64,000 bases of DNA from assembly GCF_057098645.1 (NCBI RefSeq), contig NZ_CM169472.1, one strand, 5' to 3'. Shown in pieces: positions 11,087-12,125 of the stretch (position 1 is its first letter; every line of letters starts with the position of its first letter). The translations under genes and the position numbers were made by a program. Under the pieces are notes generated by a model that saw nothing but the letters and a program-made list of their open reading frames with translations, had not been told where the DNA came from and did not search any database.

Positions 11087-12125
11087 TTATGAGTATTTAA
11101 CGGATGATGCTCCCCAGGGAACATTTCTTATGGGCCAACGGCATTTCTTACTGTAGTGCTCCCAAAACTGCTTGTCGTAACGATAACACGCTTCAAGTTC
11201 AGCATCCGTTAACTTTCTGCGATAGCAGCAGATATGCCAGTAAAGAAATCCCATTAGACTATTTTTTTGATAATCTTCTTCGCTTTCGAACAACTCGTGC
11301 GCCTTTCGAGAGGCAAGCATTATATAATGCCAGGCCAGTTCTTCTTCAATTGTCCCGTTTTGAAAAGCTGTGCTTGATATCGAGATCATCCATGATAATT
11401 CCGCCGCCCATATTAGCTTCGCCGAGGATTTACTGGAGCTATGATTAGCGCAATCAGAGATATAGTCTGAGGGAAAAACAGCAAATTTATTCAACAAGGC
11501 GATGACCTGCTCTGGAGCTTCCTCCATGTTCGCTTTAAAGGTATTGGCTCCATGGTCGCCAGAAAGAAAATGCTCCATTAAGGCACAATAACTTTCGCTA
11601 TCTTCGATACCCCATTGATCCTCTAAAGACTCGCGCCTTTTACTTATGATATCGATCGAGTCAAAAAAGCACATGATATTGGAAGGTATCTTTGCCAGGT
11701 TCAGGCTTTCGCGGCCAGAACTCCAGCGTTTCAGACCATTGCTTATGATAGAATCGATAAGGTGCGATCAATTGTAGCGCCTGTAATTTCTCGATACTGA
11801 GCGGCTCAATACCTTTAGCCTGATAATAATGCAGTTGTTCTTTTTTTGCTTTAAAACCGGCCCGAACAATAAGCCCCATCATAATTAATAGATAAAGAAA
11901 AGAGCATCCCGCGGTAATCAGGCCTCTTTCATTCAAACCGTTGGATGTTATCGCTGCGAATACAAACATTCCAGCGACAACACATGTTAAATACCCCCCC
12001 CACTTACAAAGCAGCATGGCCTTATTTTCTTTAATCATCCGTTCAAAATTACTATTAAATATTTCCCAGCCATTAAAAGAATACTTCTCGCTCCCAGGAT
12101 GGTTTTGTAATAAAACTTTTTTCAT
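11087..12125 (-). pseudogene. ynjI: ynjI (DUF1266 inner membrane protein) split by a +1 frameshift in an A6/T6 run
   Basis: Two overlapping minus-strand ORFs (11661-12188 and 11087-11674) jointly cover one protein; frames switch at the homopolymer 11663-11668; removing one base gives a continuous ~346-aa ORF. Confidence 0.6.

Follow-up and report, generated by a model that had tools for sequence, protein, structure and literature searches.

We analyzed a 64,000-nucleotide stretch of DNA (hereafter, the window) from contig NZ_CM169472.1 of RefSeq assembly GCF_057098645.1, part of an Escherichia coli chromosome of the O145:H28 lineage, and focus here on ynjI, a minus-strand gene for a membrane protein with a DUF1266 domain. 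The gene sits at its orthologous position, with the order gdhA-ynjI-topB retained, and is represented in the window by two overlapping minus-strand open reading frames (ORFs), 11087..11674 and 11661..12188 (the second being its extent in the ORF listing, with the orthologous ATG at 12125). A first interpretation made from the letters alone (the sequence-only reading) had proposed that these two ORFs jointly encode one YnjI protein and that the frame changes at a run of six A at 11663-11668 (T6 on the coding strand); we agree on both counts, the second on reading the strand. The 5′ ORF ends in ...QYHVLF-stop, and the two ORFs overlap by 14 nt within the string CATGTGCTTTTTTGAC, which contains the T6 run. 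The features at the break are as follows:

11087..12125, minus strand: ynjI, read here as a pseudogene; 1039 bp in the window, versus 1041 bp and 346 aa for the intact allele.
11661..12125, minus strand: 5′ ORF; 154 codons plus a premature TGA (11663-11661); N-terminal part with two hydrophobic helices.
11087..11674, minus strand: 3′ ORF; 195 codons in the +1 frame, starting MCFFDSIDIIS... from an ATG at 11674; contains all of the DUF1266 domain (at about nucleotides 11114-11629).
11663..11668, A6 on the plus strand and T6 on the coding strand: homopolymer run, apparently made by a deletion that fused TT and TTTT.
11666..11667: deletion junction; the reference GG (plus strand), which is the CC of codon CCT (Pro154), falls between these bases.
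11660..11669, minus strand: junction CUU UUU UGA C, a putative accidental “shifty stop” with elements of the release factor 2 (RF2; prfB) motif and without an upstream Shine-Dalgarno (SD)-like stimulator.

To locate the lesion, we aligned the 1201-bp ynjI region with the corresponding regions of O145:H28 strain RM12761, K-12 MG1655, O157:H7, and three further O145 strains. The references (K-12, O157:H7, and the four O145:H28 genomes) all read GTG CTT CCT TTT GAC (V-L-P-F-D), whereas the window reads GTG CTT TTT TGA C. The reference sequence at the site is thus TTCCTTTT on the coding strand, or AAAAGGAA on the plus strand, versus TTTTTT in the window. Over the full 1201 bp, the sole difference between the window and the intact O145 allele is the missing CC, a loss of 2 bp (GG on the plus strand, between 11666 and 11667). 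When the CC is put back, the gene regains 1041 bp and encodes 346 aa, an exact match to WP_025380409.1. Searching the region against 5,426 complete E. coli genomes returned 3,505 matches; the best were O145:H28 strains at 99.8%, all of them 1202-1204 bases long versus 1201 in the window.

The sequence-only reading had attributed the break to a +1 frameshift in a six-base homopolymer, caused either by slippage-type inactivation or by a homopolymer sequencing error. The alignment shows instead a 2-bp deletion from the non-homopolymeric TTCCTTTT, and a one-base change in homopolymer length is ruled out (the change is -2, CC). Because only the exact removal of CC yields the window sequence, the T6 run is best read as the outcome of the deletion, TT having been joined to TTTT, and not as its substrate. 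The slippage proposal fails as well: the ancestral site holds no homopolymer of five or six bases, hence no pre-existing run to slip in, and we found neither an ancestral run of the same base nor a one-base length difference. Slippage between short direct repeats was also considered and rejected, as misalignment of CTT...CTT or of TT...TT drops four bases and leaves T4, not T6. Trimming the run to five bases does give the continuous translation through ...QYHVLFDSIDIIS... that had been predicted, but the product has 345 aa and not the 346 aa of K-12 YnjI. Nor do the references resemble either of the alternatives that had been set against the homopolymer idea, six A in orthologs or reads with five A; they carry GG within the plus-strand sequence given above.

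Might the strain truly carry TTCCTTTT, two bases having been dropped in sequencing or assembly? Indels are the usual kind of assembly error, and the affected site is now homopolymer-like. However, the missing CC lies between T runs and is not a one-base run-length change; moreover, it is the sole indel across about 60 kb relative to the nearest complete genome, with the 79 other runs of six or more bases in the window unchanged. The same allele also appears in an assembly built from reads: both shortened products were found exactly in the Logan assembly of run ERR3905718, on a 121.9-kb contig reported for 5 samples. This contig has the deletion and 5 of the 6 lineage single-nucleotide polymorphisms in common with the window, and since it differs at one position (19929), it is not the same sequence record. 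A homopolymer error would be expected to be missing from independent read sets and to be accompanied by other homopolymer indels, and neither was observed, which disposes of the second half of the earlier proposal. We therefore regard sequencing error as a very unlikely cause of the lesion; the artifact explanation, which is largely refuted already, retains next to no probability in our assessment.

A 71-nt probe bearing the deletion had no perfect match in the 3,455 complete genomes with full-length coverage, the best match being 97.3%, which equals a 2-nt gap. The ORF is intact in K-12, O157:H7, and nine O145 genomes, and the window shares the deleted allele only with ERR3905718, as expected of a derived, lineage-restricted frameshift pseudogene. 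On these comparisons, we take the deletion to be a real and derived change, restricted to a single sub-lineage of O145:H28.

The identification of the product as a DUF1266 membrane protein, made in the sequence-only reading, is confirmed by the Pfam profile, the hydrophobic helices, and the gdhA and topB neighbors. The 3′ ORF matches Pfam DUF1266 (PF06889) at 95.7 bits (cut-off 27), and a Pfam search with the 5′ ORF gave no match. The intact O145 protein scores 93.6 bits against DUF1266, the profile spanning aa 167-338, and 661 bits against the NCBIfam equivalog NF008480 (cut-off 386). Hydropathy places two hydrophobic helices in the 5′ ORF, at about aa 42-64 and 68-92. A confident AlphaFold (AF2) model of intact YnjI, computed with 56 homologs (predicted local distance difference test [pLDDT] 91.8; predicted template modeling score [pTM] 0.88), has N-terminal helices at 19-33, 36-60, and 66-104, then an extended, well-ordered segment at 127-157 with a conserved WSETLE motif (aa 130-135, pLDDT about 94-97), and an all-helical domain at 158-335. 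No sequence relatives of YnjI were found in the PDB, and YnjI gave no defense-system match. The family is small: clustering at 90% identity yields eight groups, nearly all of them from Escherichia. At the 50% identity level there are 83 representatives, about 50 of them full-length proteins at 18-28% identity that have the same membrane-plus-DUF1266 layout; one distant homolog is a solitary gene flanked by unrelated genes. The 228-aa “YnjI” entries of O157:H7 proved to reflect outdated start-site calls; in RefSeq, the gene of O157:H7 is intact.

With the domain layout in hand, the predicted consequence of the deletion can be followed codon by codon. Loss of CC turns CTT CCT TTT GAC into CTT TTT TGA C, so that translation from 12125 should stop after Phe154, at the TGA at 11663-11661. 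The expected product is a 154-residue stub that would keep the two transmembrane helices and lose the C-terminal all-helical DUF1266 domain, which is left in the +1 frame after an ATG without a ribosome-binding site. The reading frame thus breaks after the membrane part and ahead of DUF1266, with the stop after residue 154 just preceding the domain. Most likely, then, only the membrane stub is made, without a DUF1266 domain, and we infer that function is thereby lost. As no uninterrupted frame of ~346 codons joins the membrane part and DUF1266 in the window (TGA after codon 154; domain in the +1 frame), its ynjI is a pseudogene of the YnjI/DUF1266 family and not a functional member. We consider it highly probable that a genuine 2-bp CC deletion has turned ynjI into a loss-of-function pseudogene, one that is peculiar to a single O145:H28 sub-lineage.

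The location of the break is also what a split gene might look like, in which the stub and a soluble DUF1266 protein would both be made, the latter from ribosomes that re-initiate at ATG 11674, 11 nt ahead of the stop, and would jointly keep the function. The 14-nt overlap of the ORFs is a geometry able to support termination-reinitiation, the break lies exactly at the domain boundary, and the 3′ ORF holds the whole of DUF1266. However, ATG 11674 has no SD sequence (within 80 nt of this internal ATG, we found no duplex with the anti-SD sequence below -3 kcal/mol), and none of the 56 homologs is split, the full-length ones all fusing the membrane part to DUF1266. The WSETLE motif, moreover, stays in the stub although the AF2 model puts it in the extended linker leading into the domain. 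We find two cooperating products barely credible, and continue with a single inactivated gene.

A different challenge to a complete loss comes from the junction itself. The sequence UUU UGA C has the features of a shifty stop, namely perfect +1 re-pairing on UUU, an in-frame UGA, and a 3′ C, and the junction fits the published definition (PMC3082878). The elements of the prfB motif have been described, as have 21 natural prfB genes that rely on TTTTTGA and tRNAPhe; changing any element of the prfB site lowers frameshifting (PMC12421855). One can therefore imagine a leaky pseudogene, in which a ribosome pausing at UGA would allow peptidyl-tRNAPhe to move from UUU to the overlapping UUU and then read GAC, giving low-level, RF2-dependent, full-length YnjI that lacks only Pro154 and has the predicted junction peptide ...HVLFDSID... 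(...DTFQYHVLFDSIDIISK...). Three of the four prfB-site elements are present in CUU UUU UGA C (slippery codon, UGA, and 3′ C), the natural TTTTTGA variants with tRNAPhe offer a precedent, and the loss of one residue would probably be tolerated: position 154 lacks conservation (the closest homologs have Arg there), and it adjoins residues 155-157, an insertion private to the Escherichia subfamily that is gapped in 50 of the 56 homologs.

What counts against such leakiness is the missing stimulator, given that an altered element reduces frameshifting, and the origin of the site in a recent private mutation with no history of selection. No SD-like stimulator was found upstream of the slippery codon, anti-SD pairing within 80 nt nowhere falling below -3 kcal/mol, as compared with -10.2 kcal/mol for the prfB control, and the junction site is absent from every reference allele. 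A leaky pseudogene is accordingly quite unlikely in our estimation, and physiologically meaningful read-through at the junction would be distinctly unlikely. The boldest form of the idea, that the CC deletion by chance built an RF2-type shifty stop and that ynjI is still expressed at a low, RF2-sensitive level without Pro154, appears highly unlikely; if true, it would mean that a +1 recoding site has been caught arising de novo in a clonal lineage.

Several points nevertheless weigh against our preferred interpretation of a genuine, inactivating deletion. Genuineness was judged from assemblies rather than from the raw reads. The Logan contig may come from the same outbreak clone, or conceivably from the same isolate resequenced, and the independence of ERR3905718 is one of read set and assembler, not necessarily of strain. 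The loss of function is only deduced, because YnjI has no known function, and the UUU UGA C context could permit some +1 read-through, in which case the allele is perhaps not fully null.

The observation in the sequence-only reading that ynjI is AT-rich relative to its neighbors is correct: its GC content is 41.6%, versus 53.4% for gdhA, 54.6% for topB, and 49.9% for the window, which places it among the lowest 2.8% of 1039-bp windows of the stretch. Two other parts of the stretch are equally or more AT-rich, at about 40150-42700 (overlapping the cdgI/yeaH region, by position) and 21500-23300, and the minimum over 1039-bp windows is 34% GC near 40.9 kb. A/T runs are common in the window (51 of exactly six bases and 80 of six or more); the T6/A6 run taken alone is unremarkable, and the broken ORF relative to the orthologs is the non-random part. 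The region upstream of the gene is the following:

12126..12252, minus strand: topB-ynjI intergenic region; carries the ynjI promoter; 100% identity with intact O145 alleles.

A sigma-70 promoter scan gave no match on the ynjI strand, so the promoter is assigned from the K-12 literature, according to which the K-12 intergenic fragment has a promoter that BglJ-RcsB activates and H-NS/StpA moderately repress (PMC3950696). This control fits an AT-rich gene that was probably acquired horizontally. A long hairpin of 16 pairs followed by a T run lies at 12178-12216 (minus strand), immediately after topB and before the start of ynjI; in all likelihood it is the terminator of topB, located inside the ynjI regulatory region. 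At another locus, the annotation of O145:H28 RM13514 marks a SIMPL-domain gene flanked by sppA and ansA (19516-20226) as a pseudogene with an internal stop, and window 19516-20226 aligns to that region without indels and with five substitutions in the stretch.

Breakage of ynjI is not peculiar to the window. The gene is absent from about 1,920 of the 5,426 complete E. coli genomes (~35%), in which gdhA and topB lie roughly 90 bp apart; the flanks in the ynjI-less genomes are only about 93% identical to the window, and a few other genomes carry strongly diverged ynjI alleles (57-80% protein identity). Within O145:H28 itself, two homopolymer runs of the gene, both intact in the window, are of interest:

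11994..12001, minus strand (coding strand): G8 run specific to the O145 allele; in relatives, the site of a G9 frameshift and of ISEc20.
11841..11847, minus strand: A7 run; A6 (frameshifted) in O145 strain RM12275-C1.

We compared 26 complete genomes of the O145:H28 type. Only 9 carry an intact ynjI. G9 replaces G8 in 10 (RefSeq label “frameshifted”), A6 replaces A7 in one (RM12275-C1), and in the remaining 6 the insertion sequence (IS) ISEc20, a 1.45-kb element of the IS110 family, lies within the G8 run. At 11994-12001 the O145 allele reads GGGGGGGG, versus GGGGGTTTT in K-12 and O157:H7, and it is the G8 run that is the true homopolymer hot spot of ynjI. The ISEc20 insertion point corresponds to window 11996/11997, with the element at 12000-13448 of the RM13514 sequence. 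Seven unrelated E. coli genomes carry an ISEc20-like element at this very point of ynjI, and other ISEc20 copies have 7-10 nt of left flank in common, which suggests that ISEc20 has a sequence-specific target site inside ynjI. In other genomes, IS621 and IS1A break the locus.

The nearly clonal O145:H28 lineage therefore holds at least four independent ynjI lesions, the CC deletion of the window included. Could the loss have been favored by selection? So many lesions in a 1-kb gene, an intact frame in about a third of the genomes, and five aligned O145 alleles that differ solely by indels, with zero point substitutions, could be taken as signs of adaptive loss. In addition, ynjI lesions explain all net length differences of the listed O145 genomes over 25 kb, except in RM9154-C1, which has an approximately 1.3-kb insertion at some point in the 25-kb region. 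On the other hand, two of the lesions fall in the O145-specific G8 run, a mutational hot spot, and the ISEc20 site is also hit in the 7 unrelated genomes and is hence a preferred target. Frameshifts elsewhere would be purged, so under neutrality one expects them to be enriched in a dispensable gene, and the support for selection comes from counts of lesions and genomes. Positive selection for ynjI loss is thus possible, though we think it doubtful.

The lesion pattern is what is expected where selection is relaxed and a dispensable gene contains mutational hot spots, and ynjI is dispensable. We infer that ynjI, a dispensable and AT-rich accessory gene under H-NS influence, is decaying neutrally or nearly so, and its repeated loss (absence from 35% of genomes and four lesions in O145:H28) marks it as dispensable and probably horizontally acquired. 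The window allele is an ordinary strain-specific pseudogene, and nothing in the case alters existing knowledge of how such genes die. Its value is more practical. Annotators should label the locus as a ynjI pseudogene that arose by a 2-bp deletion, neither as two genes nor as a homopolymer error, and the CC deletion is a clean marker of one O145:H28 sub-lineage. More broadly, ynjI offers a small natural experiment in gene decay, mutational hot spots (the lineage-specific G8), and site-specific insertion by an IS110-family element.

Set beside known systems, the window allele is closest to K-12 ynjI (b1762) and the O145:H28 gene encoding WP_025380409.1, which occupy the same gdhA/topB locus and have the same DUF1266 and NF008480 matches; apart from the lesion, the region is 98-99% identical in DNA to K-12 ynjI and 100% identical to the O145 allele. 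Unlike both, it has lost the CC of codon 154 and consists of two ORFs of 154 and 195 codons. The broken alleles of RM9872, 16003, and RM12275-C1 (RefSeq “frameshifted”) and of RM13514 and RM12581 (ISEc20) represent the same gene, in the same lineage, with a broken frame as in the window, but their lesions lie at other sites: G8 to G9 affects codons 42-44, A7 to A6 lies near codon 94, and G8 is where the IS has inserted. The G9 and A6 frameshifts are true changes in homopolymer length, whereas the window lesion is not. Finally, the junction resembles the RF2 (prfB) site CUU UGA C in its slippery pyrimidine run, potential P-site +1 re-pairing, and UGA followed by C, with GAC as the next codon; unlike prfB, it lacks an SD-like element 3 nt before the slippery codon, is not conserved, and originated in a private deletion.
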